In this document: in pieces, positions 16,788-33,474 of the stretch
Numbering within the stretch: position 1 is the first letter of the stretch
How the letters are laid out: every line of letters starts with the position of its first letter
Virus record (IMG/VR): IMGVR_UViG_3300032167_002310
Direction: 5' to 3' (one strand)
Origin: a virus
Lineage: Duplodnaviria; Heunggongvirae; Uroviricota; Caudoviricetes
Length of the DNA: 64,000 nucleotides
Position numbers and translations under genes: made by a program
Notes under the pieces: model-generated
Database searches by the model: none
Told to the model about the DNA's origin: nothing
Seen by the model: the letters and a program-made list of their open reading frames with translations, nothing else

Positions 16788-16801
16788 ATTGAAAAATCGG
16801 T

Positions 16802-18420: not shown

Positions 18421-18517
18421 GCCTCCGTCCAGGGCCCGCTCTACCTACTATTATTATACCATACCCGGGCGCACTTGTCAAGTGTTTTTTGAAACAAAAA
18501 TAAAAAATCCGAGGTTT

Positions 18518-18784
18518 TTACACCTCGGACGCAGGGGAATAAAAGGAATGGTTTTCACAGCAGTTACAGCAAGCCACCTTGTCGGTCGTATCTTGGTCGG
18601 CATTGTGGCAAGTAGAACAACCTCGGCACTCATCGTGACAGATGTAATCATCATCGGGGTCCCAGAAGACAGCGAAGTCGTCGCACTCATTCATAGGGTC
18701 ATCCAGTGTACACTGGCAGGGGATGGGACTGTCGCTGTAGTAAGGACAGTCCCAACCATTCATAGGGCAGTGGATGTGAGCCAT
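18518..18784 (-). CDS. Cys-rich small protein
   Basis: HCPMNGWDCPYY...ECDDF; TAATG coupling. Confidence 0.75.
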   Translation of the reverse strand: MAHIHCPMNGWDCPYYSDSPIPCQCTLDDPMNECDDFAVFWDPDDDYICHDECRGCSTCHNADQDTTDKVACCNCCENHSFYSPASEV

Positions 18785-19032
18785 TACTGCTTACCCCCAC
18801 AAATCGCCATGATGTTCGCCATCACTTCCATCATAGCCAGACCTGCTTCGATTTCCTGCTTTTCACCATAGGAAATGTGGTCGATAGTGACAGTACCCTC
18901 AACGAGGTCAACAGTCATGCCAGACGCATAGCGAATTTCACCAGTCGCATCATTCACAAGGATAACTTCCTTGTCACCATGGTCAGCCATAACCTCAGAC
19001 AGCATTGCAATCATCTCAGAAATCTTCATCAT
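18784..19032 (-). CDS. hypothetical protein
   Basis: 82 aa behind promoter and GAGGT RBS. Confidence 0.75.
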   Translation of the reverse strand: MMKISEMIAMLSEVMADHGDKEVILVNDATGEIRYASGMTVDLVEGTVTIDHISYGEKQEIEAGLAMMEVMANIMAICGGKQ

Positions 19033-19090
19033 AGTATCTACCTCTTTCTTTGTTTTGTTGTATTTATTATAGCATACTTTGTGGGGTTTG

Positions 19091-19291
19091 TCAAGGGGTT
19101 TCAGAAATTATTTTCCAAAATGTTTGTTGCCATTCTTCCCACATCGGAATGAGCATTTCTTCATCTTGGGGGTTCAACTCACAATGGTAAACCAGTGCCC
19201 CATAGGCTTGTGCTTCAAACACGCTCGCAGAAACAGGGCGCTGTTCAGCAAGTTGTAATCGTGATAGTACAAACTTCGTAACTTGTTCCAT
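19091..19291 (-). CDS. hypothetical protein
   Basis: Start moved to MEQVTKF behind GAGGG RBS and promoter. Confidence 0.65.
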   Translation of the reverse strand: MEQVTKFVLSRLQLAEQRPVSASVFEAQAYGALVYHCELNPQDEEMLIPMWEEWQQTFWKIISETP

Positions 19292-19355
19292 TTTGTTTCC
19301 CTCACTTTCTATACATAGTATACACCATTTCGGGAGAAATGTCAACAGGTAATTT

Positions 19356-19433
19356 TGCACAATTTTCGCTCCAAAACTTTGTGGAATCTGCTAATTGACG
19401 AAATTCCGGCCCGCCGCAGGCGAAAACGGCCGG
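19356..19433. promoter_or_regulatory. dual-box module 1 (N14) plus GC hairpin
   Basis: TGCACAAT 19356, TTTGTGGA 19378, hairpin 19406-19433. Confidence 0.8.
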
Positions 19434-19479
19434 TTTTTGTGCAAAATGACGAAAAAATCGCCCTTTTGGGGCGATTTTT

Positions 19480-19848
19480 CTACTTTTTCGGCTTTCTTTT
19501 CTGCACAAGGGTCAATTCATAGTCATTTTCACCAACTTTGAAGGCGATTTGGCGCTCTTTATTGGTGATTTCGACCATTTCGTAGCCTTTTTCGCTCAAA
19601 AATGCCGAAATTTCTGCAATTATCTGCGATTTTGTCGCATTTTCCTTGCGAACTGGCGCTTTTCGTGGGGTTTTCACAGTTTTTTCGCCCACATTTGCGT
19701 ACTTCTTGGCGGCTTTCTCTTCTTCTTTGGAAAGGTCGAAGGACATTCGCTCGCCCCTGTCGATTGCCTTATCGTCTGCGATGACTTGCAGAGCCTCTTC
19801 TTCGCTGATACCCAAATTTTTCATCAGCTTTGCAACCTGTTCTGTCAT
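19480..19848 (-). CDS. hypothetical protein (paralog of 24089-24469)
   Basis: Shared LGISxEEAxQxxADDxAIDxG and EITNxERQ motifs. Confidence 0.8.
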   Translation of the reverse strand: MTEQVAKLMKNLGISEEEALQVIADDKAIDRGERMSFDLSKEEEKAAKKYANVGEKTVKTPRKAPVRKENATKSQIIAEISAFLSEKGYEMVEITNKERQIAFKVGENDYELTLVQKRKPKK

Positions 19849-19971
19849 AGTTATCAACTCCTTTACTGTACCCTTATTATAGCACAGTTAAGGCTATCTG
19901 TCAAGGGGTTTTGCAAAATTTTTTTCTACCGCCCTTTTAGGGGAGGGGGCATTTCTGCCCCCTTGGGGGAG

Positions 19972-20331
19972 TTAGGCTACTTTGGAGAAGTAAGCCTTTC
20001 TCTTTTCCTCTGTTCTCTCAACAGAGCCATCAGTTACCAACTGTCTGACAAGGGCAGACACTCTCTGATTGGACAACTCTGCACACGCAGGCACAGACTT
20101 CATCAAATCTGTGATAGTGTACTTCTTGCCGACTTCCATACCTTCAAGGATTTCAGCCTTGATGCCTTCGTTGGCAACCTGTACAGCAGTAGGTTTCTTT
20201 TCAGCAGAGTTTTTCTTTGCGAGCAATTCCAACTCGTGGTCGATGAACGCAATCTCGTCTGCGTTCAAGGCATAGTTTGCCTTAATCTGTTCAAACATTT
20301 CTCTCTTAGTCATCTTCTTAGTATTAGCCAT
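19972..20331 (-). CDS. winged-HTH protein, paralog 1
   Basis: YTITDLMK...LSNQRVSALVRQLV...VERTEEKRKAYF. Confidence 0.75.
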   Translation of the reverse strand: MANTKKMTKREMFEQIKANYALNADEIAFIDHELELLAKKNSAEKKPTAVQVANEGIKAEILEGMEVGKKYTITDLMKSVPACAELSNQRVSALVRQLVTDGSVERTEEKRKAYFSKVA

Positions 20332-20619
20332 AGTATCAATTCCTTTCTGGTTTGTTGGGTTTTCCTTCCCTTTGATGATTTAATTATATCATAGGTTGAG
20401 CGATTTGTCAAGAGGTTTTTTGAAGTTTTTTTATTTTTTTTCTCAACTCTCTGTTGACTTCTCTCTCCCTTTGATGTATTCATTATAGCACATCTTGGGG
20501 GATTTGTCAAGAGGTTTTTTGAAATTTCTTAAAAACTTTTTTTGACCTCTATCAATTCGGCTCTCCCTTACTGACAATAATAGTATACCACAGACCAAGA
20601 GAAAATACAAGTGTCAAAA

Positions 20620-20755
20620 TGCACAAATTTTAGGAAAATTATTTTTTATTTTTTGTGCAACTTTTCTCTTGACAAAATTTGCGGCCGGTGGTATAATGGA
20701 AAATTCCGGTCACGCTGGCCGTGACCGGGCCGGCGCTTTGTGCAAAATGCACAAA
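20620..20755. promoter_or_regulatory. dual-box module 2 (N24) with rightward promoter, hairpin and an extra TTTGTGCA-AAA-TGCACAAA palindrome
   Basis: Boxes 20620 and 20652; TTGACA 20669, TATAAT 20692; 9-bp stem 20706-20728; palindrome 20737-20755. Confidence 0.85.
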
Positions 20756-20832
20756 ACCCCCAGGGGAGCGAATCACCCCAGGGGTCAAGTGAAAATTGAG
20801 AGAGGGGAGGGAGGGGCTTGCGCCCCTTGCCC

Positions 20833-21192
20833 TTAGTCCACCTTGGAGAAGTAAGCCTTGCGCTTCTCCTCAGTGCGCTCCACAGAACCCTCAGTAACCA
20901 GCTGGCGCACCAGTGCGCTCACTCGCTGATTGGAGAGGTCAGCGCACGCATCGACACTCTTCATGAGGTCAGTAATGGTGTACTTCTTGCCACTCTCCAT
21001 GGCTTCGAGGATGTCAGCCTTGATACCCTCATTTGCGACCTGAACCGCAGTCGGCTTCTTCTCTGCGGAGTTCTTCTTTGCCAGAAGCTCCAGCTCATGC
21101 TCAACGAAAGCCTTTTCGTCAGCAGTGAGGTTGTAGTTTGCCATAATCTGGCGGAAGTAGTCAGCCTTAGTCATCTTCTTAACATTTGCCAT
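20833..21192 (-). CDS. winged-HTH protein, paralog 2
   Basis: Highly similar protein to 19972-20331. Confidence 0.75.
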   Translation of the reverse strand: MANVKKMTKADYFRQIMANYNLTADEKAFVEHELELLAKKNSAEKKPTAVQVANEGIKADILEAMESGKKYTITDLMKSVDACADLSNQRVSALVRQLVTEGSVERTEEKRKAYFSKVD

Positions 21193-21319
21193 AGTATCGT
21201 CTCCATTTCTCGCTATTGGTTGCGACCCTTTTTGAAGTTTCGTTCCTCTCTTGGAACATCTTAATTATACCACATGGGGTTTGATTTGTCAAGAGGTTTT
21301 CGAAAAAAATTCGCGACTT

Positions 21320-21512
21320 TTTTTCTTATCTTCGCTACTCGCCCACTTCTCAGCCTTGTTGCTGGCCCAGCCCTAAGTCTACCCTCACCACGCAATCGCT
21401 TTGCCACGCTCTGTGGGGGCTACTGGGATTCGTGTATCCTTTGGGTTTCAGTTCGCTTCGTGTCTGTTTCCACTGTCCTTGGTGGCTTTCGCTGTCAAGG
21501 TTCCCCTCTTGA
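21320..21512 (-). ncRNA. candidate structured ncRNA A
   Basis: Own promoter at 21519-21549; no credible ORF; GNRA-capped mini-hairpins (gcGAAAgc, tgGAAAca) and several stems. Confidence 0.45.
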
Positions 21513-21559
21513 CTGTAATCATTATACCACACTTTGCGGTATTTGTCAAGACCTTTTTT

Positions 21560-21755
21560 CAAGATTCTTGACTTTTTTGTGTGAGGTATTGTATCGCGCA
21601 TAATCCCCTATTACTTCAACCTCTGGGGCACTGGTTCACACTTGTATACCGCAAACGCGAACACCTTGCGGTCAGAAGCAAGAGCCTTGGCTCAAGGGGG
21701 AAGTCTTACATCGCTCTCGTGGGCTTCCCTCTTCGGGTCGCTTCCCTTAACTTCT
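21560..21755 (-). ncRNA. candidate structured ncRNA B
   Basis: Own promoter at 21761-21790; no credible ORF; stems accGCAAggt, gagcCAAGgctc, gggaag/cttccc. Confidence 0.45.
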
Positions 21756-21896
21756 GTATTTATTATAGCACACTCGGCGCTATTTGTCAAGAGGTTTTTT
21801 AACTTTTTTCAAAGTTTTTTTGAGCTCCTCTTGGGTGCTCCCCTCACCTGACATAGATAGTATACCACATCCAGAAGCAGATTGCAATAGACAGAA

Positions 21897-22016
21897 TGCA
21901 CAAATTACAGGATTTTTATTTCTCGATCTTTGTGCACATTTTCTCTTGACAAAAATGCCGGGGTATGGTATAATGGTAAATTCCGCGCGCTACGTTCGTG
22001 CGCGCGGCGCTGAAAT
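21897..22016. promoter_or_regulatory. dual-box module 3 (N24) with rightward promoter and hairpin
   Basis: Boxes 21897 and 21929; TTGACA 21946, TATAAT 21969; stem CCGCGCGC/GCGCGCGG 21983-22007. Confidence 0.85.
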
Positions 22017-22037
22017 CTCAAACAAAAAAGCGAGGGA

Positions 22038-22196
22038 TTAACCCTCGCATTCCTCGTTGCGGTCTTCAATTCGTTCCTTGATTGCCTGGATGGTAGTACC
22101 AATCAACAGACCAAGCATCTGCACACACAGACAGCCAACAACACCAACGAGCACCCAACCGATGTGGTCAGGAATTTGACAAATAAGTTCTAACAT
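22038..22196 (-). CDS. small membrane protein (52 aa)
   Basis: Manual translation MLELICQIPDHIGWVLVGVVGCLCVQMLGLLIG...; promoter and GAGGT RBS. Confidence 0.7.
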   Translation of the reverse strand: MLELICQIPDHIGWVLVGVVGCLCVQMLGLLIGTTIQAIKERIEDRNEECEG

Positions 22197-22253
22197 AGTA
22201 TCAACCTCTTTCCTTAATTTCTGTATTCATTATACCATGGGGGAGGGCTTTTG

Positions 22254-22991
22254 TCAAGCCCTTTCCCCACTATTTTTGAAAACTTTTTTCAAGTCCATTT
22301 CCTTGCGTGTTCTCTGGGGGATTCTCCAACACGCAGGGGAAATTTTAGTTTCAAGTTTTCTGTGCATTGCGTAACACTTTGCGAGAATTTCAACTTCAAT
22401 TCTCACATCCTCAAGTCCTGTGTGGCTTTCCACAAAATCAACTTGCTTTTTCAGAAACTTGTAACAAGCCTCAGCACTTGTCTGAATGTTGTCGCTTTCG
22501 CTAATTAAACCATTCTGTAAAGCAAATTTTACATAGGAAACTTGATTGAGAACCACTTGACAAGCCATGTTCCAAATGCAAATGTAATCAGTTCCCCAAG
22601 GGAAGAACCAACGCCAGCGAGATTGAGAACAATAGCGAATTGTATTATTCAATGCTCTCTTGTCAAAACCCATGTTGTAAGCACCCACCTTGCGAATGGA
22701 ATACTTTTTCATGTCCTCATGGATTTGCTTGCGAATGTTGAAAATGCTTTTCAAAGTGCGAGTGCCATTTTTAATGTCATCCCAATACTGGGGAATCTTT
22801 TCAGCAAAGTAGGCACTTTGCATCAAGTCTTTGTGGTCGAGGAACATTTCAGAAACCACAAAACTTCTTTCAAGGTAAATCTTGCCTTGTCTGTCACAGA
22901 TTGCATAGCCAATGTCATAGCACAAAGGCTGTTCAATGGTGTTTGCTGTTTCAGTGTCGATGATTAAAAATAATTCTTTCTTGCGAGCCAT
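22254..22991 (-). CDS. DEDDh 3'-5' exonuclease (DnaQ-like)
   Basis: ExoI IIDTET, ExoII AYNMGFD, ExoIII ESHTGLED. Confidence 0.85.
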   Translation of the reverse strand: MARKKELFLIIDTETANTIEQPLCYDIGYAICDRQGKIYLERSFVVSEMFLDHKDLMQSAYFAEKIPQYWDDIKNGTRTLKSIFNIRKQIHEDMKKYSIRKVGAYNMGFDKRALNNTIRYCSQSRWRWFFPWGTDYICIWNMACQVVLNQVSYVKFALQNGLISESDNIQTSAEACYKFLKKQVDFVESHTGLEDVRIEVEILAKCYAMHRKLETKISPACWRIPQRTRKEMDLKKVFKNSGERA

Positions 22992-23097
22992 GGGTATCAA
23001 ATCCTTTCGTATCAACTGTAATTATTATAGCACTTTCATTTTGATTTGTCAATAGGTTTTTGAAAAATATTTTGCGCCCGGGCGAAAAGCTGACCCA

Positions 23098-23571
23098 TTA
23101 AAGGGTCTTGCTTTCGCTCACAAAATACTTCACTTCATACTGTGCGAGAATGTCACGCACCTTTGCACTCTCTTTCTGTGTTGCACAGTAGAAATTGAAA
23201 AGGGTATATTTTCCAACATTTTCCACATAGTTGTGGGGAATGTCTTTCAAATCAAAATGTACTGCGTCAGTCCATTCGTGGGGAACAGTTGCTTCAACTT
23301 TCCAAAGTTTGTCCTTGCGTGCCTTTTCTTCGCACCACTTAACAACATACACACCAACAAGGTTGCACAGAGCCACAATGCCAGCCTTTAAGTAAAGGTC
23401 AAGTTCACACATTAAGTAAACAGTGACAATTGTGTAAAGACCAAAAGCAACAGCATTTACGATTGCGGCGACCCCTTTACCGCACTTCACAGTGGCGATA
23501 CTTTTCACTGTCTGAATGATAACATTCAGAATGTTAAGAATGATAAATGTAATAAGTAACTGTGTATTCAT
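23098..23571 (-). CDS. membrane protein, DUF2179/UPF0316-like
   Basis: Three N-terminal hydrophobic helices (NVIIQTVKSI...GxxxxAAIVNA) plus a soluble C-terminal domain. Confidence 0.6.
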   Translation of the reverse strand: MNTQLLITFIILNILNVIIQTVKSIATVKCGKGVAAIVNAVAFGLYTIVTVYLMCELDLYLKAGIVALCNLVGVYVVKWCEEKARKDKLWKVEATVPHEWTDAVHFDLKDIPHNYVENVGKYTLFNFYCATQKESAKVRDILAQYEVKYFVSESKTL

Positions 23572-23614
23572 AGCGTTTACCTCTTTCGTTTCTTTCTGTA
23601 ATTATTATAGCACA

Positions 23615-23860
23615 TCAATGCTCGTTTGTCAATACCTTTTTTTCACTTTTTATCATATTTTTTGTAAAAGCATCGGAGAACTCATCCCCATACTCATCGC
23701 TGACAAGATAGGCGAGGTATTCCATTACAGTGCTCACCCCATACATGAAATGCTCATTGCCATTCTTTGCATCGTACCGACCGCAGAACAGACCGCATTC
23801 TGTCATTCCGTCAACTACCTTTTCGATTACTTTCTTTTCCTCTTGGTTCAGTTCTAACAT
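23615..23860 (-). CDS. hypothetical protein
   Basis: Start moved to MLELNQEE behind AGGAGG RBS and promoter. Confidence 0.7.
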   Translation of the reverse strand: MLELNQEEKKVIEKVVDGMTECGLFCGRYDAKNGNEHFMYGVSTVMEYLAYLVSDEYGDEFSDAFTKNMIKSEKKVLTNEH

Positions 23861-23922
23861 CGTTCTATCCCTCCTGACATTATTAGTATACCACGTTTCG
23901 GGAGATTTTGCAATAGGCAATT

Positions 23923-24086
23923 TGCACAAATTTTCGCCCGCATTTTTGTTGAAATTAACTATTGACAGGAATACCGGCCCGCGCACTTGTGCACGGGCGG
24001 CCATTATACCACAGCCGGCCCGATTTGTCAAGTGGTAAAAATGCACAAAAATTAGGGCGAAAGTTTGTGACTTTCGCCCATTGACA
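23923..24086. promoter_or_regulatory. dual-box modules 4 and 5 (both N14) with intervening hairpin
   Basis: Boxes 23923/23945 and 24042/24064; TTGACA 9 bp right of each right box (23962, 24081); hairpin 23977-23998. Confidence 0.8.
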
Positions 24087-24088
24087 AG

Positions 24089-24469
24089 TTAGGAACGAGG
24101 GGCAGACAGTACCACCTTAAACTTTCGCCCATTGCAGTGGAAAAGCATTTCCCTCTCGGCGTTCGTAACCTCAATTCCCTCAATGCTTTCCAATCCCTCA
24201 AGGGCTTGCTTGATTTCGTCAATCAGCATTGCCTTGTCGTTGTCGGCTTTGCGTTCTCTCTTGGTTGTGGTCTTGGTTGTGGTGGTGGTCTTTGTTCCAA
24301 TGGCTCTTGCCTTTTTGCTTGCCTTTTCTTGCTCGGCACTCAACTCAAAGAGTTTTGCTCCCTTGTCGATTGCTTCATCATCAGCGACCAACTGTTCGGC
24401 TTCCTCTCGGCTGATACCTAACAGACCCATGTGCTTGGCAATCAGTTTTTCTCTCTCGGATGCTGTCAT
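24089..24469 (-). CDS. hypothetical protein (paralog of 19480-19848)
   Basis: Shared motifs; sits downstream of a wHTH paralog as at 19.5-20.3 kb. Confidence 0.8.
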   Translation of the reverse strand: MTASEREKLIAKHMGLLGISREEAEQLVADDEAIDKGAKLFELSAEQEKASKKARAIGTKTTTTTKTTTKRERKADNDKAMLIDEIKQALEGLESIEGIEVTNAEREMLFHCNGRKFKVVLSAPRS

Positions 24470-24557
24470 AGGCAATCCCCCTTTCTGTAATTACATTATA
24501 CCACACATCAAAGGGGTTGTCAAGGGGAAATTTGCATTTCCCCTTGACTTTTTTCCC

Positions 24558-24917
24558 TTAGTCAGCGAGGGAGAAATAAGCCTTACGCTTTTCCTCAGTT
24601 CGCACAACCACGCCATCAGTGACGAGCTGACGAACAAGAGCAGACACACGCTGGTTGCTCAGTTCGGCACAGGCAGGAATGGTCTTCATCAGGTCAGTGA
24701 TGGTGTAGGACTTACCCTGCTCCATACCTGCGACAATGTCGCCCTTAATGCCCTCATTAGCCACCTGCACAGCGGTAGGCTTCTTCTCGGCACTGTTCTT
24801 CTTTGCGAGCAGTTCGAGTTCGTGGTCAATGAACTCAACCTCAGCCTCAGTCAGAGGGTAGGAAGCCTTAATCTGCTCGAACATCTCACGCTTAGTCATC
24901 TTCTTAGTGTTTGCCAT
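24558..24917 (-). CDS. winged-HTH protein, paralog 3
   Basis: MANTKKMTKREMFEQIKA identical to the paralog 1 N-terminus. Confidence 0.75.
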   Translation of the reverse strand: MANTKKMTKREMFEQIKASYPLTEAEVEFIDHELELLAKKNSAEKKPTAVQVANEGIKGDIVAGMEQGKSYTITDLMKTIPACAELSNQRVSALVRQLVTDGVVVRTEEKRKAYFSLAD

Positions 24918-25308
24918 AGTATCAATCTCCAATCTCGTGGTAGGTCACGACCCAAGTTTTTATTCTGTAAGAGGTGTCCCTCTTTACATTCTTATTATAG
25001 CACATTGGGAGTTGTTTGTCAAGAGGTTTTTTCAACTTTTTTTTTATTTTTTTTGTTGACCTCTCAGTAGGTTTTCCCTTACCTTGTATAACTATTATAG
25101 CATACTCTTTAGGATTTGTCAATACCTTTTTCAAAACTTTTTTAGAAATTTTTTGGTAATGGCTTTTTCCTTTTTTCTATAATAATTATAACATAATTTT
25201 TTTATTTTGTCAATAGGTTTTTTCAAAATCTTTTTGATGGGATTTTGTTCTCTCCCTTACTGACAATAATAGTATACCACATCAGCCACCAAAATACAAG
25301 TGGCAAAT

Positions 25309-25419
25309 TGCACAAAATTACAGGAAAATCTTTGTGCATTTTGCCTATTGACAAATTGCTCGAAAAATGTTATAATGGAAGGTTAGGCCAAAACACCGGT
25401 CCGCGCGCACGTGGACCGG
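25309..25419. promoter_or_regulatory. dual-box module 6 (N14) with rightward promoter and hairpin
   Basis: Boxes 25309 and 25331; TTGACA 25348, TATAAT 25371; stem 25396-25419. Confidence 0.85.
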
Positions 25420-25474
25420 CCGATGCATTTTGGATTTTGAAATGGAAAAAGCGAGGGTTTCCCCTCGCTCTTCC

Positions 25475-25627
25475 TTATCGCGTTCTCTGCTTCGTTGTCA
25501 GCGAATAGGCAACCCCATTCTCAAAAATGACTTCGTCCTTTGTGATGGACGCAACCACCATACCTTCGGGGTTGCTCATGTTTGCGCGAATCTCATTCAG
25601 TGCATTTGCTACTTCTCGAATACTCAT
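25475..25627 (-). CDS. small hypothetical protein (50 aa)
   Basis: Manual translation MSIREVANALNEIRANM...; own promoter, AAGGAG RBS and terminator. Confidence 0.7.
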   Translation of the reverse strand: MSIREVANALNEIRANMSNPEGMVVASITKDEVIFENGVAYSLTTKQRTR

Positions 25628-25701
25628 AGTATCATTCTCCTTTTCTTTTGGTTTGTACTTGTATTATAGCATAGGTTTGGGGGTTTGTCAACCCCCATTT
25701 T

Positions 25702-25947
25702 TTACTTTTTTGCGCTTACGCTCTTGGGACTGTCATTGGTCAAGGGCATCTGCGGAGTGGGAGCTTGTGCTTTGGTGATGATTGCATCAACCTGCTCATA
25801 GAGTTTGTAAGCCTTGCTCGCCTTGCGATAGACTTTCTTCAACTCGGAGTAGGTAAGAGCATTGAACTGCTCGTCACTCATTGTGACCCCAACCTTTGCC
25901 AACTTGTTGCGGATAGATTTCAAACTCATTTCGGAAAACATTTTCAT
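25702..25947 (-). CDS. basic hypothetical protein
   Basis: 81 aa with own promoter and GAGGT RBS. Confidence 0.7.
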   Translation of the reverse strand: MKMFSEMSLKSIRNKLAKVGVTMSDEQFNALTYSELKKVYRKASKAYKLYEQVDAIITKAQAPTPQMPLTNDSPKSVSAKK

Positions 25948-26221
25948 AGTAACAACCTCTTTTCTTTATTTTCTATAATTATTATACCACATTTTTATTT
26001 AATTGTCAATAGTCTTTTTCAATTTTCTTGAACTTTTTTCTATTGTACGAGCCTTTGCCCTTTTTGTTCTCGACTACCGACCCACGCTTGCGAAAGTGCA
26101 AATACTGTTGCAGTTCTTCGCCCTCTTTCTTAAAAATGCGATTGTCAATGGTTTTCTTCTTTTTCATTTATCTCACCTCTTGGTATTATTATAGCATACC
26201 TTTGGGGGTTTGTCAACCCCC

Positions 26222-26710
26222 TTAGGCAACTTTTTTCTTTCTGCCACGCTTAGGCACATAGTTTTTGTAGTCCTTGCCACACTTCTGCAAATTGTGGAGA
26301 GTGTCGAAAGTGACAATCTGTGCGCCGTTGAATTTGATTTGATACTCAATGCCGTTCACATTGACATCACCACCAACCCAAAAGCCGTCATTATCCCAAT
26401 CTCTTGCGACCTGACCGAAGTATCTCTGTACCCACATTTCAAAGTTTCTGCCGTTGTTGCCGTTGGTTACTTCGTAGTCGATTTCGATTGCGCCCTTGCG
26501 AATGAGCTGTTCCATGTGCTGATTAGTCAGTCGAAGCTGAAGCTTTTCCTTGCCACCCTTTTTGCTTGCTTCTTTTTCTACTCGAATGAAGCGAGGCATG
26601 ATTTCATCAACGATTGCCATGTAGTTCTTCTTCTTGTAAGTGAAACCGAGGATGTAACCCTGTGCGCCACTAAACTTTCTGTAGTATCTGATTGCGTTTC
26701 CCTTAGTCAT
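26222..26710 (-). CDS. putative PD-(D/E)xK nuclease-fold protein
   Basis: GRNFE...GGDV...YQIK motif spacing; start moved to MTKGNAI. Confidence 0.5.
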   Translation of the reverse strand: MTKGNAIRYYRKFSGAQGYILGFTYKKKNYMAIVDEIMPRFIRVEKEASKKGGKEKLQLRLTNQHMEQLIRKGAIEIDYEVTNGNNGRNFEMWVQRYFGQVARDWDNDGFWVGGDVNVNGIEYQIKFNGAQIVTFDTLHNLQKCGKDYKNYVPKRGRKKKVA

Positions 26711-26803
26711 TGTTCCTGTCTCCTTTTCTGTTCCGTTCTTTGTATCTTTATTATAGCACCGCATTGACCGTTTGTCAAGCACTTTTTTTATTTTTTTTGA
26801 AAA

Positions 26804-26890
26804 AGATGAGGGGCTTTTAGGGGCGTCCCCCAAGGGGTTTGAACCCTTTCTGCTTGAGCGGCTCAGCATTAAACCTCACCCCTCATCTGT
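26804..26890 (-). ncRNA. small RNA containing a tRNA-Glu-like T-arm and 3' acceptor strand
   Basis: Promoter at 26897-26925; 10-bp closing stem AGATGAGGGG/CCCCTCATCT; AAGGG-TTCAAAC-CCCTT-GGGGGAC-G-CC. Confidence 0.55.
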
Positions 26891-26934
26891 AAGTACAGTA
26901 TAACACACTCCCCAATAGAAGTCAATAGTCAAAA

Positions 26935-27046
26935 TGCACAAATTTCAGGAATTTGACCTCTCGCAACTTTGTGCAAATTGCCTATTGACAAAATGCTGAG
27001 GAAGTGTTATAATGGAAATTCGTGCCGCCTGGGTCGTGGGCGGCGC
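26935..27046. promoter_or_regulatory. dual-box module 7 (N25) with rightward promoter and hairpin
   Basis: Boxes 26935 and 26968; TTGACA 26985, TATAAT 27008; stem 27022-27046. Confidence 0.85.
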
Positions 27047-27064
27047 GCCAAAAAGGCGAGAGCG

Positions 27065-27283
27065 TCAAATTGCTCTCGCCCTGATTTGGGTGGGCTTGAT
27101 GTCTGCGTGACCCTTGTAGGCGTAATACTCAACCCATTCATAGGTGTTGCCACAGTGGTCACAGCCACCGACCACGCTCATTGCGATTGTGCCTGTGTCG
27201 AGGTCTTCAACATCGTAGTGTGAGATAGAAATGAGGGAGCCGCCGCAAGTGGGGCAAGTGGGTTCATTCGTGTTAATCATCAT
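27065..27283 (-). CDS. zinc-ribbon protein
   Basis: CPTCG...CDHCG. Confidence 0.75.
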   Translation of the reverse strand: MMINTNEPTCPTCGGSLISISHYDVEDLDTGTIAMSVVGGCDHCGNTYEWVEYYAYKGHADIKPTQIRARAI

Positions 27284-27356
27284 GGGGTATCAGTTCCTTT
27301 CCTCTTGGTGTAATTAAATTATAGCACAACGGTTTGAAAATGTCAAGGGGAAATTC

Positions 27357-27806
27357 TCACATTTCTGCGAGAATTTCCAAGATGTTCTGCACATCATAAG
27401 CCTTGCCAGTCCAGTTTGTTCTGTTGCGTTCTTCATCATCGAAAAGCACATCGAGAGGAGTTTTGCAGAAGTTCTGCTTTGGTGTGCCGTAAGGTACAAT
27501 GTGGATTTCGTTCCAGTTGACACTTGGCAGATGTTTCTTGAGCCAATCCATTTTGACTTCGGTAACTGCTCTGTTGTATTCTTCTGTGCCACTCTTGCTC
27601 AGCCAAGAGATAACTGCGATGTTGTAGCCATTTCTCTGGAGAGTGTTAAGTCTGCGAGCGAGAGTTGCAAGTCTAAGCAGAGGCTTTGCGTTTGCGTAAG
27701 GGAATGTGTCGCCTGCGATGAGGTATTCGAGCCAGTTTTCTACTCCATAGAGGTCAGCGATTGTGCCGTCCATGTCAAAGTTGATTGTGATGTTCATAGT
27801 CTTCAT
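27357..27806 (-). CDS. HAD-superfamily 5'(3')-nucleotidase-like phosphatase
   Basis: Motif I FDMDGT, motif II ISW, K, motif IV LFDD. Confidence 0.85.
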   Translation of the reverse strand: MKTMNITINFDMDGTIADLYGVENWLEYLIAGDTFPYANAKPLLRLATLARRLNTLQRNGYNIAVISWLSKSGTEEYNRAVTEVKMDWLKKHLPSVNWNEIHIVPYGTPKQNFCKTPLDVLFDDEERNRTNWTGKAYDVQNILEILAEM

Positions 27807-27917
27807 TGTGTTTACTTCCTTTCCTTTTTTGTATCTTAATTATAGCATGGATTTTCGTGTTTGTCAATAGGTTTTTGAAAAGTTTTTTATTTTTTTTGAC
27901 CGGGGAAAGTGGGGGAC

Positions 27918-28592
27918 TTAGTCCACCCACTTCGGAAAGCACTTGTTGTACTCTCTGCCCTTTGCGTCCCACTGGTGAATGTTCTTGTTGAATTTCTTGT
28001 GCATTTTCAGACAAGCCACAAAGATTTCCATTTCGATGAGTGCGTCAGCCAGTGCAGTGTGTTCTTCGATGTAGTCAGCATTTCCAGTGATGAAGCCATA
28101 GACAGTCTGTGCAGTAGTAGAGCAAGACTTCTTGGAAGAGGACTGGAAGCCATTCTCGTGGCAGAAGTTCGCAAAGCCTTTCTTGTGGCAGATGGTCTGC
28201 AAAGCCATCAAGTAAATGTCGATGAACTCAAACTCGTCGAGCAGTTCTCTGCAAATAGTCTTGGTAAAGTCGAAAGCAGAGTTGTAAGCCATTACATAGC
28301 GAACACCATAGAACTTGCAAAGGTTGCGAACGATGGAAAGTGCTTCGGCTTCGGTAGCCACCGCAGACATTTCGCCAGTCATCAGTCTTTCGCGATAGAT
28401 AGGGAAGTTCTTCTTTGCGTAATCGTCCTGTGCGATTTCGTCATAGTGTTCCATTACAAGCAGAGAAGCGGTTGCGAAAATGTTGCCCTCTCTGTCGTGG
28501 ATAGTGCAACCGAGGTTGTACATTCCAGTAGGATTAGAAGCTCCGCCAACAGTTTCAGTATCAAGTGTGCAGTAAATAATTTTCTTGTTCAT
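27918..28592 (-). CDS. DEDDh 3'-5' exonuclease (paralog of 22254-22991)
   Basis: LDTET, AYNSAFD, EEHTALAD. Confidence 0.85.
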   Translation of the reverse strand: MNKKIIYCTLDTETVGGASNPTGMYNLGCTIHDREGNIFATASLLVMEHYDEIAQDDYAKKNFPIYRERLMTGEMSAVATEAEALSIVRNLCKFYGVRYVMAYNSAFDFTKTICRELLDEFEFIDIYLMALQTICHKKGFANFCHENGFQSSSKKSCSTTAQTVYGFITGNADYIEEHTALADALIEMEIFVACLKMHKKFNKNIHQWDAKGREYNKCFPKWVD

Positions 28593-28699
28593 TGTTATCA
28601 ATTCCTCTCTCAATTTCTGTATTTATTATAACATAGGTTCGTGGGTTTGTCAATAGGTTTTTCAAAACTTTTTTAATTTATTTTGTACGGGCGGTTGGC

Positions 28700-29113
28700 T
28701 CACATCGAGCCAACCATTGTAATCCCTCTGTCTTTCAACCATTCGCAGAACTGTTCAGCAGGGAGCAAGTCCGCAAGGTCTTTCATTGTGTACATTCTTG
28801 TAACCTCTTCCCATTCCCACCTGACACGAATGGGCTTGAAAGTCTTTTCTGTCATTTTGCTTTTGTTTCTGTAGAAGTCGCCCCAACCAATTTCGATGGT
28901 CGGACGATTGCGAAATAGAGTGCAACCAGTTTCTGCATTTCTGATTCTGTGGTCACGAACTGCCGCAAATGCTTCTTCAAAGGTTTCGAGTGTGTATTCT
29001 GTCGTGTTACACTCGCCAACTTCCACATAGCGAATGTGATTCCAAATGGAAGTGTCGCAGTAGTCATCATTGCCGATTGCCGCATAGCATCTAAGGTTTA
29101 CTAATTTCTTCAT
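28700..29113 (-). CDS. hypothetical protein
   Basis: 137 aa with own promoter and RBS. Confidence 0.75.
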   Translation of the reverse strand: MKKLVNLRCYAAIGNDDYCDTSIWNHIRYVEVGECNTTEYTLETFEEAFAAVRDHRIRNAETGCTLFRNRPTIEIGWGDFYRNKSKMTEKTFKPIRVRWEWEEVTRMYTMKDLADLLPAEQFCEWLKDRGITMVGSM

Positions 29114-29171
29114 AGTATCAATTCCTCTCTCTTGGTTTCTGTAATTATTATACCACGGCTTAGGGGTTTTG

Positions 29172-29495
29172 TCAACCCCTAATCGTAAATAATTCTGGAT
29201 GTCTTTGACAATTTTTCATTACTCGCTTTTCCATTTTAGGTGACATCTGCCCCTTGCCCGCCATTCTGTAAAGACGATAGCACTGATTGACATTTGCCAT
29301 AAATGCAGTTATCACAATGTCACGATACAAATTCTTAACAATGATAATTCCACTACTGGTTAGCAAGTACCTCTTTTCTTCTTCAATTACTTCAACTTCA
29401 AGCACAGGGTTTGTGAAGCCGAGAACTTCTTCCAATGCTTGCAGTCGGTTTGCTCGTTCCACTCCTGCGTGGAATGTAGTATTCATAGGTTTCAT
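29172..29495 (-). CDS. hypothetical protein
   Basis: Start moved to MKPMNTTF. Confidence 0.7.
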   Translation of the reverse strand: MKPMNTTFHAGVERANRLQALEEVLGFTNPVLEVEVIEEEKRYLLTSSGIIIVKNLYRDIVITAFMANVNQCYRLYRMAGKGQMSPKMEKRVMKNCQRHPELFTIRG

Positions 29496-29511
29496 CTTTA
29501 GTATCCCCCTT

Positions 29512-29694
29512 TCATGCTCTAAGTATACCATACTTTGAGATGTTTGTCAATACCTTTTCGTACCATTTTTTGCGACTTACCAACTTAATGCCGAGAACCT
29601 CAGCAACCTTGTTGTAAGTCTGTTCGTCGATTGCGTTGCGTACTTCCTCAGGCTGTTCGCTCCAAGGTCTGTCAATAGTAATGTTCATCATCAT
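29512..29694 (-). CDS. small hypothetical protein
   Basis: 60 aa with promoter and GAGGGG RBS. Confidence 0.6.
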   Translation of the reverse strand: MMMNITIDRPWSEQPEEVRNAIDEQTYNKVAEVLGIKLVSRKKWYEKVLTNISKYGILRA

Positions 29695-29762
29695 AGTTAT
29701 TACCCCCTCATCTTTTGTACCTTAAGTATACACCATTTCGGGATGTTTGTCAAGCACAAAAT

Positions 29763-29840
29763 TGCACAAATTTTCCACGAGATTTTTGTGCAGATTACCT
29801 CTTGGCAGAAACACCGCGCGCCACAGCCGACAGCGCGCGG
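29763..29840. promoter_or_regulatory. dual-box module 8 (N14) plus hairpin
   Basis: Boxes 29763 and 29785; stem CCGCGCGC/GCGCGCGG 29814-29840. Confidence 0.8.
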
Positions 29841-29874
29841 CCGAAAAAATAAAAAGAGAGGGTTTCCCCTCTCC

Positions 29875-30084
29875 TTAATTGCTCTTGGAACTCGATTTGA
29901 AAAAGCCACCTACAAAACTGAGCAGAGCGCAGATGCCGAAAGCCTGCCAAAATGTTAGAGCAAACGCACAGCCGAACAGGCTCATCACCCAGTTAAACAG
30001 AAGCATCCCAATCCATGCCTCGAAACACACAACGCCGAACACCAGTGCCAGCGCGAGAATTACCATCAAACAACCTTCACCCAT
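29875..30084 (-). CDS. small membrane protein
   Basis: Two hydrophobic helices. Confidence 0.75.
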   Translation of the reverse strand: MGEGCLMVILALALVFGVVCFEAWIGMLLFNWVMSLFGCAFALTFWQAFGICALLSFVGGFFKSSSKSN

Positions 30085-30156
30085 TGTATCTATCTCCTTT
30101 TCTTTTCTTTGTATTATTATTATACCATAATTTTAATTGATTGTCAAGGGGAATTT

Positions 30157-30489
30157 TTACATTCCCCTCATTGTTGTTATTGCTTCCATTACCCACTCTT
30201 GAAAGTGAGATTTAATAAATTCTACTGTATCAAGATCAGCGCAATTAAAATAATCTTTGCGAATGCGCCGAGCCTTTTGTGTTTTTAGAATTTTCATTCG
30301 CAAAAAACTTTCTACAAATAGCCTTTCGCATTCTCCGCCGCCAATGTCTAATGATTGAAGAATTAAATAATCTTCTTGGAGCAACTGATTACTTCTACGC
30401 CTTGCATTAGTCGTTTCCCCAATTTTGATTGCCGTTCTAATTTCTAAATGTTCTGCGTAATACACTTCTGAATAACATCCGTAAGCCAT
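30157..30489 (-). CDS. GIY-YIG/T5orf172-like small protein
   Basis: IKIGETTNARRRSNQL motif; AT-richer than neighbours. Confidence 0.5.
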   Translation of the reverse strand: MAYGCYSEVYYAEHLEIRTAIKIGETTNARRRSNQLLQEDYLILQSLDIGGGECERLFVESFLRMKILKTQKARRIRKDYFNCADLDTVEFIKSHFQEWVMEAITTMRGM

Positions 30490-30568
30490 TTTTACCACTT
30501 CTTTCTGTTTCTTTCTGTAATTATTATAGCACAAGGGGTTGAGTTTGTCAACCCCTTTTTGCATTTTT

Positions 30569-30994
30569 TTACTTTACTTCAACAATCAGTTTGTAAGCTC
30601 GGCAAGAGCCAAAACCATAGCGATTGTAAGTAGTTTCTTCCCACCTTACAGACAGACAATGCTGAGCAAGATACTCTTCAATGAAAGTCTTGTGATAGTT
30701 CTTGTCAGTGCAAGGAGAATAACTCCAATCTCCATTTGCATACTTCTTGCCATCGAAACGAATAGGACGCAGTACCTCGTTGCCGTAAGCATCGGAAGCC
30801 ATAGCGAGGTCAATAGAAGTTGAAATCAGTCCACCCTTAGGGTTGAGAGCCTGCTTCTCAAGGGCAGGTCCAATCTCAGTTTCACAGAATTCAACACTCG
30901 CACCCAACAGACGAGCAAGACTTTCTGCCTTTTCTTTTTCCCACTTCATTACGCTTGCATTTCTCACAATTGCCAGTTCACTTGCACACATCAT
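30569..30994 (-). CDS. hypothetical protein
   Basis: Start moved to MMCASEL behind AAGGAG RBS. Confidence 0.7.
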   Translation of the reverse strand: MMCASELAIVRNASVMKWEKEKAESLARLLGASVEFCETEIGPALEKQALNPKGGLISTSIDLAMASDAYGNEVLRPIRFDGKKYANGDWSYSPCTDKNYHKTFIEEYLAQHCLSVRWEETTYNRYGFGSCRAYKLIVEVK

Positions 30995-31082
30995 AGTTAT
31001 CAGTCTCCTTTTGTTTTCCTTTTTTGTATCTTTATTATAACATGGAGGGGGCTTTTTGTCAAGCCCCTTTTTTAATTTTTTT

Positions 31083-31337
31083 TTAGCAATCATAAGTGTA
31101 ACATCCTTCGTAAGGGTCAAAGCCAAAATCGTCATCAATGTCAGCAGGCTCTTCGTAGTCCTCTTCCTCAGGGTCGTAGAAGGCTACTACTTCGCCAGTT
31201 TCATCCCACACAAGGGAAGCAGTCTGGCAAGTCATCTCTGCGATGGTCTTAGCTGCTTCGTAGCAAGCATAGCAAGCTTCAGTACCACTAATAGTAGCGA
31301 TAGCGTTGTTGTTAATGTAGATAGTATAAGTGTTCAT
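31083..31337 (-). CDS. small acidic protein with DDDFGFDPYEGCYTYDC tail
   Basis: Start moved to MNTYTIY behind GAGGT RBS and promoter. Confidence 0.75.
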   Translation of the reverse strand: MNTYTIYINNNAIATISGTEACYACYEAAKTIAEMTCQTASLVWDETGEVVAFYDPEEEDYEEPADIDDDFGFDPYEGCYTYDC

Positions 31338-31420
31338 AGGTTGTACCTCTCTCTCTTTCTTTGTATCTATAGTATACCATGCGCGCAGGTATTTTGTCAA
31401 GGGTTTTGGGAGATTTATTT

Positions 31421-31508
31421 TACACAAATTTACGCCGATTTTGCAAGCCTTTTTTGTGCAGGTTTTACAATAGCACCAATCAGGCGCGCCAGGACCGTGC
31501 GCGCGCCT
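31421..31508. promoter_or_regulatory. dual-box module 9 (N24, degenerate left box) plus hairpin
   Basis: TACACAAA 31421, TTTGTGCA 31453; stem AGGCGCGC/GCGCGCCT 31482-31508. Confidence 0.75.
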
Positions 31509-31567
31509 ATGGCGGTCTTTCTGTATTAGTGTAGTATTAGTAGTAGTGTGTAGTAGCACACACTGCA

Positions 31568-31858
31568 TTAGTGTGTGCTTACTCCTACTACCTCATCATC
31601 ATAGATGTATCCATCAGTGTGTGCTGTGTACATGTGTACATCTACCACTGTGCCTACGCTTGGTGCTGTGCCCTCTACCTCATAGCACCACACATGTCCT
31701 TGCTTGTCCTCTACCTCTGCAAGCTGTCCTTCTGTGTGTACTACTACGCAGTCCTTGCGTGTGTAGTGTGTCTCTACGTAGCCGCACAGCCCCAGCATGC
31801 CCATGAACACTACTACTACCAACAGTATAGTCATCATCTCTGTTACTCTCTTACTCAT
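31568..31858 (-). CDS. membrane-anchored/secreted small protein
   Basis: N-terminal hydrophobic helix; own promoter and GAGGT RBS. Confidence 0.75.
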   Translation of the reverse strand: MSKRVTEMMTILLVVVVFMGMLGLCGYVETHYTRKDCVVVHTEGQLAEVEDKQGHVWCYEVEGTAPSVGTVVDVHMYTAHTDGYIYDDEVVGVSTH

Positions 31859-32015
31859 TGTATCTACCTCTTTCTTTACTTCTTTCTTTGTATCTTTATT
31901 ATACCATTACAGGAGGTTTGTGTCAAGCTTTTTTTACACGTTTGTGCAGACTTTTTTCTGTGCCTCCTGGCTCTGTGGCAGTTAGGGATAGCAGGGCCGC
32001 ACACGGTAGCTACCC

Positions 32016-32351
32016 TTACAGAGTAGCTATTACCTTAGCCAGTGCCTCAGTATCCATTGCCTCATAGTGTGTCATGATAGTAGCAAGCATAGCCTTTCTC
32101 TCTGCTTCTCTCTGTCTCTTAGCTGCTTGTGCTTCTTTGTACTGTGCTACCTCTGTTGCGTCGTAGCTGTAGCTCTTCTCTCCGTACATGTATGCTGTGC
32201 GCACTGTGCCATCCTCTTGGTGTACGTTGATAGTCTTGCTTGTGTGGTAAAGCATAGGTCTTGCTTCAGCAGGTGCGCATTCCTTAGTATAGTAGGTGTG
32301 TCTGTGTGTCTCATTGTTTCTTACTACGTAGATTGTGCTGATGTGTTTCAT
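32016..32351 (-). CDS. hypothetical protein (first gene inward from the putative genome end)
   Basis: Start moved to MKHISTIY behind GAGGT RBS and promoter at 32385. Confidence 0.75.
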   Translation of the reverse strand: MKHISTIYVVRNNETHRHTYYTKECAPAEARPMLYHTSKTINVHQEDGTVRTAYMYGEKSYSYDATEVAQYKEAQAAKRQREAERKAMLATIMTHYEAMDTEALAKVIATL

Positions 32352-32424
32352 TGTGTGTACCTCTCTCTTCCTTTGTTGTACCCTTAGTATAACACGTTTC
32401 GGGAGGTTTGTCAATAGGTAGATT

Positions 32425-32500
32425 TGCACAATTGTTGCGCCCTTTATTTGTGCAAGATGTATACCATGCCAACCAGGGCCGCGCCATCCATGCACGGCCC
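32425..32500. promoter_or_regulatory. dual-box module 10 (N14) plus hairpin
   Basis: TGCACAAT 32425, TTTGTGCA 32447; stem GGGCCG/CGGCCC 32476-32500. Confidence 0.8.
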
Positions 32501-32732
32501 AGCGTATGTATTAGTATGTACATCATTGTGTTGTTTATTATTTATTATTATTATCTATTGTTGTATGTATAGATAGATGTGTATGTGTTATGTACTCATT
32601 ACCTCTTGGTCATTGTGTATGTATCTCTTTGTATGTACATGTGCGTAGCTCTGTAGGGCGTAGAGAGGGGCGTACCTCTCTGTCTGTGTGTGTGCCTGTG
32701 CTGTGTATGCCAACATACCCGGGGGGGTGTAT
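32501..32732. other. non-coding low-complexity TG/TA-rich tract ending at ATACCC-G7-TGTAT; candidate physical genome end
   Basis: Dinucleotide bias stops abruptly at about 32720. Confidence 0.45.
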
Positions 32733-32867
32733 TTCGGGAAAATTTTTTTTTATTGTTGATGAAATGTTATTTCCTGGACAAACCTCCCACTAAATCAATT
32801 TCAGATTTCGGTTTACGGGAAAAATAAGAAATGGGTCCCATACCGAATGGTACGGAACCCAATCTTT

Positions 32868-33206
32868 CTAAACTCTTTCTACGGCGACTCCAAAAATATT
32901 GTTTCGCCCAATAGTGCCATTAATGTGTCCATGGTTGTTTCCAATCGTATACCGATTTCCATTCTTAATAGCTACTATCTTGTGCAGGTAGTAATGCCCA
33001 CCCACTCTACATAGAACAATATCATTCTTATGCAATTTCGTATCCTCGGTTACAGGAATACAAATAACACTATCTCCACTCTCCAAAATGGGAGTCATGC
33101 TTTGTCCATACCCAGTTACCAAACAACTGCGACCCTCACGCAATTTCTGCGCGGTAATCGCATTTTCTTTTCCATGAAATAGTTCTGCTAAATTGCGCCC
33201 TGCCAT
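32868..33206 (-). CDS. S24/S26-family serine peptidase-like protein
   Basis: GQSMTPILESGD...DIVL...YLHKI. Confidence 0.75.
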   Translation of the reverse strand: MAGRNLAELFHGKENAITAQKLREGRSCLVTGYGQSMTPILESGDSVICIPVTEDTKLHKNDIVLCRVGGHYYLHKIVAIKNGNRYTIGNNHGHINGTIGRNNIFGVAVERV

Positions 33207-33208
33207 AA

Positions 33209-33472
33209 TTAGTCCTCCAACCCAACCTTGATTGCGAGTTCAGCTGGAACAGCAATATTCAATTCTTGGAGCAATTCTGCGGCAAGGCGATATTTATCAG
33301 CTTCAATGCGGGCTGAGCGCAAACAAATGTACTCGCATCCGCCGCTTTCCATTGTGAACAATTCCATGTCATCATTTTCATGGAGTCCCATTCGGTCACG
33401 CAAGCCCTTAGGAATCGTGACACGTCCGAGCGCATCAATTTTTCTTGTTGTGTTTTCTGGTCTAATTCTCAT
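33209..33472 (-). CDS. AbrB/SpoVT-family transcription regulator
   Basis: RKIDALGRVTIPKGLRDRMGL signature. Confidence 0.9.
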   Translation of the reverse strand: MRIRPENTTRKIDALGRVTIPKGLRDRMGLHENDDMELFTMESGGCEYICLRSARIEADKYRLAAELLQELNIAVPAELAIKVGLED

Positions 33473-33474
33473 TT

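Follow-up and report, generated by a model that had tools for sequence, protein, structure and literature searches.

Early regions and chromosome ends in described phages

Reports exist of phages that gather small early genes in a block of their own, and of the chromosome ends beside which such blocks can lie. The host-takeover module carried by Bacillus phage SPO1 (genes 37–60; Stewart et al., 1998, as cited in PMC6873191) lies in a terminal region of 12–13 kb. The T5 record (AY543070, 1–10,219) holds a 10,219-bp terminal repeat in which dmp, A1 and A2 run toward the end, with an injection stop signal at 9,140–10,149. Arbiol et al. have described promoter-early stem-loop (PeSL) cassettes in the hyperplastic regions of T4-type phages (Arbiol et al., 2010, PMC2839356). 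The present analysis concerns a window of 64,000 nucleotides, the whole stretch of DNA that was analysed, from the virus record IMGVR_UViG_3300032167_002310. Positions 65,246–129,245 of a single virus contig of 191,974 bp, read on the reverse strand, make up the window, and the subject is a block of small leftward genes at 17.5–32.4 kb together with the non-coding spacer at its right-hand head. An earlier reading of the letters alone (the sequence-only reading) had taken 18.45–32.72 kb for a 14.3-kb pre-early region with a T5-like gene kit, possibly a direct terminal repeat (DTR). The evidence given below suggests that the block is likely to be a sigma-A-dependent early takeover/accessory array which adjoins, and does not lie inside, a short terminal repeat in the ~190-kb genome of a gut siphovirus of Bacillota.

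Compared with SPO1, the locus is alike in being a block of ~12–14 kb at what is probably a chromosome end, in holding at least two dozen small early genes whose promoters and ribosome sites are of the kind that gives very high expression by host sigma-A polymerase, and in having a phage-encoded sigma factor that would take over afterwards. It differs in that a long terminal redundancy encloses the SPO1 module, whereas the present block probably stands beside a repeat of ~0.3 kb; in its density of about one perfect consensus promoter per 420 bp; and in belonging to a siphovirus with a YonF-type terminase. Like the PeSL cassettes, the array pairs repeated strong host-type promoters with GC hairpins that flank small non-essential genes, and relatives differ by an apparent gain, loss and swapping of genes between the repeated units, single genes being present in 0 to 44 of 80 related loci. 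Promoter-to-promoter joints were seen in contigs of bovine-gut relatives; such joints can stem from other organisms or from repeats. Unlike the PeSL cassettes, several units carry the −35 within the hairpin loop, the hairpin reading at the same time as a terminator for the opposite strand, and some units are divergent pairs with operator-like boxes.

The resemblance to T5 is that of an end-proximal block of small genes with a HAD-type deoxynucleotidase and nucleic-acid enzymes, followed at the inner end by a non-coding stretch rich in repeats and palindromes. The T5 Dmp protein and the NT5C-type protein of the block share HAD motif I only (DxDGTI; BLASTP E 0.17), and a tblastn search with 16 T5 pre-early proteins against the whole genome gave no match at E < 0.01, and none in the block, so the resemblance is one of general design. 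A T5-like gene kit, with homologs of A1, A2 and Dmp, was not upheld. The SPO1 module and the PeSL cassettes are better analogues of this locus than T5.

The Tsamsa and Thrax phages ("Tyroviruses") and the Brevibacillus phage Sundance share with the present phage a homologous large terminase (TerL, 31–36% identity), sigma-like and YonG-like neighbours, and a leftward block of small genes whose head abuts the terminal repeat, the repeat being a predicted one in the present case. Features of the gut clade that set it apart from these phages are a 95-bp element with an A6/T8 tract and iterons, and the dense array of perfect promoters; the portions of the Sundance end regions that were scanned held no perfect promoters.

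The probable early promoter array

A perfect promoter is defined here as TTGACA, a 17-nt spacer and TATAAT with TG before the −10 (TTGACA-N17-TGnTATAAT; 12/12 positions). By this definition 34 of the 39 perfect promoters of the genome lie at 18,155–34,927 of the window, 30 of them on the minus strand, and 33 are packed into 13.8 kb (18,155–31,926), where the expectation by chance, estimated from composition, is well under 0.01. A consensus scan likewise gave 80 promoter-like sites against 36.4 ± 5.5 in shuffled sequence. With 33 perfect promoters in 13.8 kb, the promoters are the real defining feature of the block, and they were absent from the list of the sequence-only reading. The array proper (18,155–32,414, minus strand) consists of leftward sigma-A-type promoters, 29 of them perfect and 6 near-perfect (11/12), that have A-rich tracts upstream; a strong ribosome site and one small gene follow each, for a total of ~29 genes. 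When aligned, the promoters share the A-rich tract, TTGACAAA, TGTGnTATAAT, a purine-rich leader and a strong ribosome site ~30–40 nt downstream.

The minus strand carries all credible protein genes between 32,351 and 17,603, and the leftward block is closed by a terminator at 17,494–17,529 (minus strand; a 16-pair stem followed by a T run) that converges with the terminator of plus-strand genes at 17,321–17,346. The delimited block reported earlier is real, and more sharply defined than the sequence-only reading had it. Its left limit had been placed at a palindrome island, which is present, but the transcription block extends 1 kb further, to the terminator. The statement that its genes point inward from the right-hand edge is correct for the array, which is leftward throughout, but leftward genes continue to the right of the edge in a separate operon (32,868–34,866). 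The host-type promoters and strong ribosome sites support the proposed early module of the host-takeover type, driven by host RNA polymerase. In most of the 80 related loci the layout is that of a head promoter by the sigma gene, 2–4 kb free of promoters and then 8–18 perfect promoters; the equivalent block of phAss-1 has 12.

Four perfect promoters within the block read rightward (plus strand; starts at 20,669, 21,946, 25,348 and 26,985, together spanning 20,669–27,013). Each is followed by GGAAA(T)TTC and a GC-rich 5' hairpin, is antisense to a leftward gene (of 119, 52, 50 and 72 aa, respectively), and lies within a divergent cassette with paired TGCACAA/TTGTGCA boxes. Their transcripts are candidate cis-antisense RNAs without a match in Rfam; at E ≤ 1 the Rfam search gave a single sub-threshold small-RNA match, outside the array. 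About 8–10 divergent regulatory cassettes were noted at 19,311–32,515 (e.g., 20,575–20,720, 25,264–25,399, 26,890–27,036 and 32,380–32,515), with a leftward promoter of the TATACT class, a conserved TCCCGAAA spacer and often a rightward perfect promoter, the paired boxes standing ~9 nt from each −35. One of the winged-helix paralogs encoded in the block probably uses the boxes as operators. At several array promoters (e.g., 31,044–31,071, 30,533–30,557, 25,678–25,697 and 22,239–22,267) a GC hairpin holds the −35 hexamer in its loop; with the A-rich tract upstream added, these hairpins read as an intrinsic terminator of the plus strand. Promoter and antisense insulator are fused there.

The spacer and the conserved G-run element

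A spacer of 0.4 kb (32,415–32,832) separates the first array promoter (32,414) from the terminator of the operon to the right, here called operon 1. Its left part (32,415–32,720) is non-coding, T/G-rich and almost free of AA; composition, the distance from the head promoter to the G-run and the motif positions of relatives make it the predicted body of a short direct terminal repeat. The abrupt compositional edge that had been noticed at ~32,720 was borne out: the 200 nt to its left are 42% T with one AA, the 112 nt to its right hold 17 AA, and conservation among relatives starts at the G-run found there. The composition on the left side reaches further than the spacer. From 31,530 to 32,720 the plus strand is nearly without AA, GA and GG, with TG and GT abundant; each of two genes of ~300 nt holds 3 AA, and the 200 nt of spacer hold 1.

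To the right of the edge lies a conserved element of ~95 bp (32,721–32,815, plus strand) made of the G-run, TGTATTTCGGG, an A6/T8 tract, a CTGGnCAnAAC box at about +52 and one iteron-like unit. The element is present in a single copy in the genome. It was aligned (BLAST and MAFFT against loci retrieved through the sigma factor) in 41 distinct relatives, whose sigma factors are only ~70% identical to the present one, and in these the conservation starts exactly at the G-run. Although the sequence left of the G-run defies alignment, head promoter and G-run are 190–306 nt apart in 23 of 24 relatives. Conservation is of sequence alone, the hairpin of the element not being kept among the relatives, and in some of them the iteron-like unit is tandemly repeated. 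Two relatives, L049 and L051 (97 and 127 kb), begin inside tandem iteron-like units, and the copy number of these units varies widely.

The ends of contigs were considered as a proxy for physical ends and found to be uninformative. Of those whose ends fall upstream of the sigma gene, one has its first base at the G-run, another 38 nt ahead of it, and two have theirs within the iterons; breaks at promoter repeats are seen in many others, and all 32 contigs with the exact core run through it.

The chromosome end in cultured relatives

The phage belongs, by its terminase sequence, to the lineage of phAss-1, Enterococcus phage EF1, Tsamsa and Sundance. Over more than 90% of the protein, TerL is 50% identical to that of Geobacillus virus E3 (GVE3), 36% to that of Sundance and 31–32% to those of the Tsamsa-like phages. 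The order sigma factor, YonG-like protein, TerL, portal is common to VRE9_3, phAss-1, GVE3 and Sundance. The G-run motif was found upstream of TerL, and on the same strand, in all five cultured phages in which it is placed here, which represent three lineages, at 224–271 bp from the mapped or recorded left end. Sundance (TerL 36%) has an annotated DTR of 323 bp, identical at both ends, with the G-run at 271; its short DTRs were called from read pile-ups (PMC4616168). By our own count, its motif and the core of relative L063 agree at 21 of 24 bases. The sigma-like and YonG-like homologs of Sundance are in the same order as here, and its repeat is flanked by a leftward operon on one side and, on the other, by the head of a leftward block of ~40 small genes that spans 14 kb; this matches the arrangement in the window. 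The Tsamsa-like phage Thrax1 (TerL 32%) has an annotated DTR of 285 bp, obtained with PhageTerm and inspection of reads (PMC9703825), with the motif at ~232–256, and the 284-bp repeat of Tsamsa itself has been confirmed by restriction mapping (PMC3903500). In both Sundance and Thrax1 the motif is inside the annotated DTR, 30–50 bp from its right boundary. The ends of Skywalker (TerL 31%; G-run at 265) were predicted from similarity to the Tsamsa and Thrax DTRs, and the DTR of PJN02 (TerL 35%; G-run at 224) is not confirmed. The fifth phage, Enterocloster phage PMBT24 (TerL 23%; G-run at 252), is a headful packager whose record starts at the pac site given by PhageTerm.

Because the motif lies near the mapped ends of cultured relatives, the edge at ~32,720, the boundary of a possible terminal repeat in the sequence-only reading, is very probably a physical end region, and the chromosome end of the present phage is probably within the 0.4-kb spacer. 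The left physical end is predicted at ~32,450–32,500 and a short repeat of ~0.3 kb at roughly 32,450–32,775, and we infer from the relatives that the right boundary of this repeat would fall near the conserved CTGGnCA box. The element is proposed to be the site of terminase recognition and of the right boundary.

Under the preferred reading, the DNA of the virion would be linear, with the ~0.3-kb repeat at its ends, so that the array would form the right end of the chromosome and be transcribed inward. Host RNA polymerase would transcribe the array first; nucleic acids and nucleotide pools would be the targets of its products, which would also repress their own promoters or set their timing. 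Transcription would then be redirected, presumably to the middle and late genes, by the phage sigma factor of the neighbouring gene. If the prediction holds, it would give concrete ends (a repeat of ~0.3 kb with its right boundary ~50 bp beyond the conserved G-run motif) to hundreds of uncultivated large phage genomes from gut and rumen that are deposited as arbitrary circles, and would link these genomes to the packaging lineages of Tsamsa, Sundance and PMBT24. The early region offers an unusually pure set of ~35 consensus sigma-A promoters with a single small gene each, a list of proteins that are candidates for host takeover and anti-defence in gut Bacillota, and a source of strong portable promoters and paired-box operators.

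Alternative explanations

Several points weigh against the reading of an early array beside a short repeat. The ends and the repeat length of the present phage are derived from relatives and not from its own reads, and the contig was assembled as a circular type, with 1,661 bp of overlap between its two ends and 39 mismatches therein, nearly all at multiples of three, as expected of a metagenome assembly with strain variation, which is uninformative on physical ends. PMBT24 carries the motif and is reported to be a headful pac phage. In phAss-1, PhageTerm places the cut at the analogous position, where the sequence is only vaguely motif-like. The composition poor in AA, GA and GG extends into coding sequence for 1.2 kb, further than any short repeat would; since two protein genes share the bias with the spacer, it is not accounted for by a short repeat alone. 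Early expression is deduced from the type of promoter only, and the RNA-library contigs on parts of the array come from relatives and may reflect carry-over of DNA. These contigs leave 29–36 kb uncovered and, with a source of 90–95% relatives and possible DNA carry-over, they are not interpretable. The cut of phAss-1 was considered as support for the motif and rejected, the match being too weak and a loose regular-expression match elsewhere in the array being compatible with chance. In VRE9_3 the spacer has only a degenerate look-alike of the motif, as judged by eye.

The terminal repeat of 14.3 kb would make the whole of 18.4–32.7 kb a long DTR, a pre-early region of first-step transfer like those of T5 and SPO1, with the palindrome island as the injection stop. 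It would fit an array whose genes point inward from a probable genome end; an island of CCGATCGG and GATC sites that sits right at the array's distal end, in a genome otherwise purged of GATC, and recurs there in three of five large relatives; the position of the T5 injection stop signal at the inner end of the T5 repeat; and the takeover genes of SPO1, which lie in a terminal region of 12–13 kb (PMC6873191). Contig depth speaks to the contrary. The stretch was found in 24 public runs, contigs only, and depth is given as the mean word depth of a contig in the probable source sample. Contigs at 16,500–20,590 and 27,747–36,400+ bridge both proposed boundaries and have the same mean depth of 19.5, and the interior contigs have depths of 23.5–26.9 (~1.3-fold), with breaks at 20.56 and 27.76 kb and not at the proposed limits. 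A twofold repeat over 18.45–32.72 kb should have given unequal means for the bridging contigs and ~1.5-fold depth inside, which was not observed, and the doubled coverage that had been anticipated over ~18.4–32.7 kb thus left no sign in the contig depths. The modest excess in the interior is better explained by a co-occurring strain. The relatives with homologous terminases and the motif have repeats of 284–323 bp or package by the headful, no T5 pre-early homolog was found in the genome at E < 0.01, and dmp, A1 and A2 of T5 point outward, toward the end. Contig depth and the short repeats of relatives together make a 14.3-kb repeat very unlikely. Two-step entry of the DNA, with the island as a possible injection stop, is conjectural.

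The headful packaging of PMBT24 leads to another reading. As that phage carries the motif, the motif may mark a pac site here instead of a fixed end: the genome would be circularly permuted, only the first chromosome of each series would begin at the element, and there would be no fixed repeat. In PMBT24, reported to be headful and circularly permuted with a mapped pac site (PMC11035940), the G-run motif is 252 bp from the pac site given by PhageTerm; the iteron-like repeats beside the core resemble binding sites of small terminases, and all assemblies of the clade close on themselves. Against this, the PMBT24 terminase is only 23% identical and the phages with short DTRs are closer (Sundance 36%, Tsamsa-like phages 31–32%), the conserved spacer length of 190–306 nt fits a repeat defined by its length, and collapsed short repeats also give assemblies that look circular. 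Headful packaging from this site is on balance unlikely, though it deserves more weight than a long repeat. An element with no relation to chromosome ends, such as an origin of replication, a site for partition, or a sequence that insulates or terminates transcription between operon 1 and the array, could account for the A6/T8 tract, for iteron-like units of variable copy number, for the global minimum of cumulative GC skew 2.5 kb away and for the G-run segment, which scores as a weak plus-strand terminator. The skew tracks the direction of transcription, and therefore neither locates an origin nor gives independent evidence of one. The motif stands at a constant 224–271 bp from the mapped or recorded left ends of five cultured phages of three lineages, falls within the annotated repeat in two of these phages and shares the strand of TerL in every case, and the hairpin is not conserved among relatives, only the sequence is. 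This explanation is accordingly given very little credence.

T7 uses three promoters by which host RNA polymerase pulls in the entering DNA. The ~35 promoters of the array, of maximal strength and firing inward, could by the same principle serve as a motor and checkpoint of genome entry, with host RNA polymerase pulling in or holding the first ~15 kb, gated at the CCGATCGG/GATC island, where alone this genome, purged of GATC and free of CTAG, tolerates such sites. This is an improbable addition to the preferred reading; if true, it would be a convergent form of staged DNA entry. As a related possibility, the array might also titrate the sigma-A holoenzyme of the host away from host promoters.

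In PMBT24 the pac site has a mirror-image strand composition, with 5% C in the 700 nt to its left and 7% G in the ~470 nt to its right (99,260–99,962 and 430–900).

The GATC and CCGATCGG island

The palindrome island that had been reported at the left of the block is real. It spans 17,405–18,406. All five CCGATCGG sites of the genome (expectation for the window, 0.26) lie in it, as do 9 of its 43 GATC sites. GATC is reduced to 7% of expectation in the genome (43 against ~584), and CTAG is absent from the 191,974 bp against ~294 expected. The non-coding part, at 18,050–18,450, follows downstream of the perfect promoter at 18,481. Clusters of CCGATCGG stand at the same distal position of the array in three of five large relatives, with some of the sequence context conserved. 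Folding of the island as a structured RNA was no better than that of shuffled sequences (z −0.49).

Genes of the block

The HAD nucleotidase listed by the sequence-only reading was verified as an NT5C-type 5'(3')-deoxyribonucleotidase of 149 aa (27,357–27,806, minus strand), with 28.0 bits to Pfam NT5C against a gathering cut-off of 24.8, a match to phrog_2643 at 8e-11 and HAD motif I (DMDGT) at residues 11–15. No other array gene is so widely conserved: it occurs in 44 of the 80 related loci, compared with 23 for a membrane protein, 21 for an exonuclease and none for several other array genes; the gene content between promoters is mosaic among relatives. The two DEDDh exonucleases were likewise confirmed. 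These DnaQ-like 3'–5' exonucleases are paralogs of phrog_20187, paralog A at 27,918–28,592 and paralog B at 22,254–22,991 (both minus strand), and two such paralogs are also found in phAss-1 and VRE9_3. The motifs DxE, Nx2FD and Hx4D are invariant in 11 sequences, including 9 homologs from related contigs (D12/E14, N106/D110 and H190/D195), and the AF2 model (pLDDT 85) matched the DnaQ domain, RNase T, Orn and ExoI in Foldseek with probability 1.00 and TM ≤ 0.67 by target. Sequence searches of the PDB with the exonuclease and the nucleotidase gave nothing significant.

The best candidate for the possible PD-(D/E)xK nuclease of the sequence-only reading is a protein of 162 aa (26,222–26,710). 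Its residues E91, D115, Q124 and K126 are invariant, but the identity was not confirmed, since the AF2 model (pLDDT 77) had no fold match (Foldseek E > 0.3, VIA Z ≤ 3.6). The small DNA-binding, membrane and acidic proteins reported for the block are all present. Three winged-helix paralogs are ~80% identical to each other; two of their genes are each trailed by a paralogous protein of ~125 aa, which points to an internal duplication of a cassette. One copy, at 19,480–20,331, consists of a winged-helix protein (19,972–20,331) and a 122-aa protein (19,480–19,848), the second copy is at 24,089–24,917, and the solo winged-helix paralog is at 20,833–21,192, all on the minus strand. The block also encodes small membrane proteins and acidic proteins, and its last gene (17,603–18,046, minus strand; promoters at 18,183 and 18,109) encodes an acidic helical protein of 147 aa without a family match, for which only one relative was found. 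No product of the array matched SPO1 or other known takeover proteins in PHROG or Pfam, and megablast of the block against 50,697 phage records gave no match.

Neighbouring genes and the genome

Operon 1 (32,868–34,927, minus strand) has a single perfect head promoter at 34,927–34,899, no internal consensus promoters and, at 32,832–32,861 (minus strand), a strong terminator. Its genes (34,866–32,868) encode two small membrane proteins, FolD, a DNA-binding protein of the AbrB/MazE type and an S24-peptidase-like protein. FolD is full-length (methylene-THF dehydrogenase/cyclohydrolase), and the S24-peptidase-like domain is free-standing. Divergent from operon 1 lies the gene of the phage sigma factor (34,948–36,054, plus strand), with a sigma-A-type promoter of its own (11/12). 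The plus-strand genes from 35,002 onward are the sigma factor, the YonG-like protein, the large terminase, the portal and the tape-measure open reading frame (ORF); the packaging genes (36,101–41,124, plus strand) comprise the YonG-like protein (phrog_3314), the YonF-type large terminase (37,330–39,069) and the portal (39,454–41,124).

The nearest annotated relatives of the phage are phAss-1, the Enterococcus phages VRE9_1–4, H1, EF1 and EF5, and Geobacillus virus E3; Sundance, the Tsamsa-like Bacillus phages and Lactococcus phage 949 are more distant. The genome has 37 tRNA genes, none within the window and none a suppressor, and the tape-measure ORF of 3,085 aa and other long ORFs are unbroken under translation table 11. 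An alternative genetic code was rejected on these grounds; phAss-1 has TAG recoding, whereas the present phage shows no sign of it.

A contig from the same record series, IMGVR_UViG_3300032167_000002 (402,311 bp), carries two different copies of the sigma factor and early-array locus ~204 kb apart, and is probably two related genomes joined during assembly. Between the window and the genome record of the same contig there is a sole difference in 64,000 bases, at position 39,930, where the window has G and the record has A.

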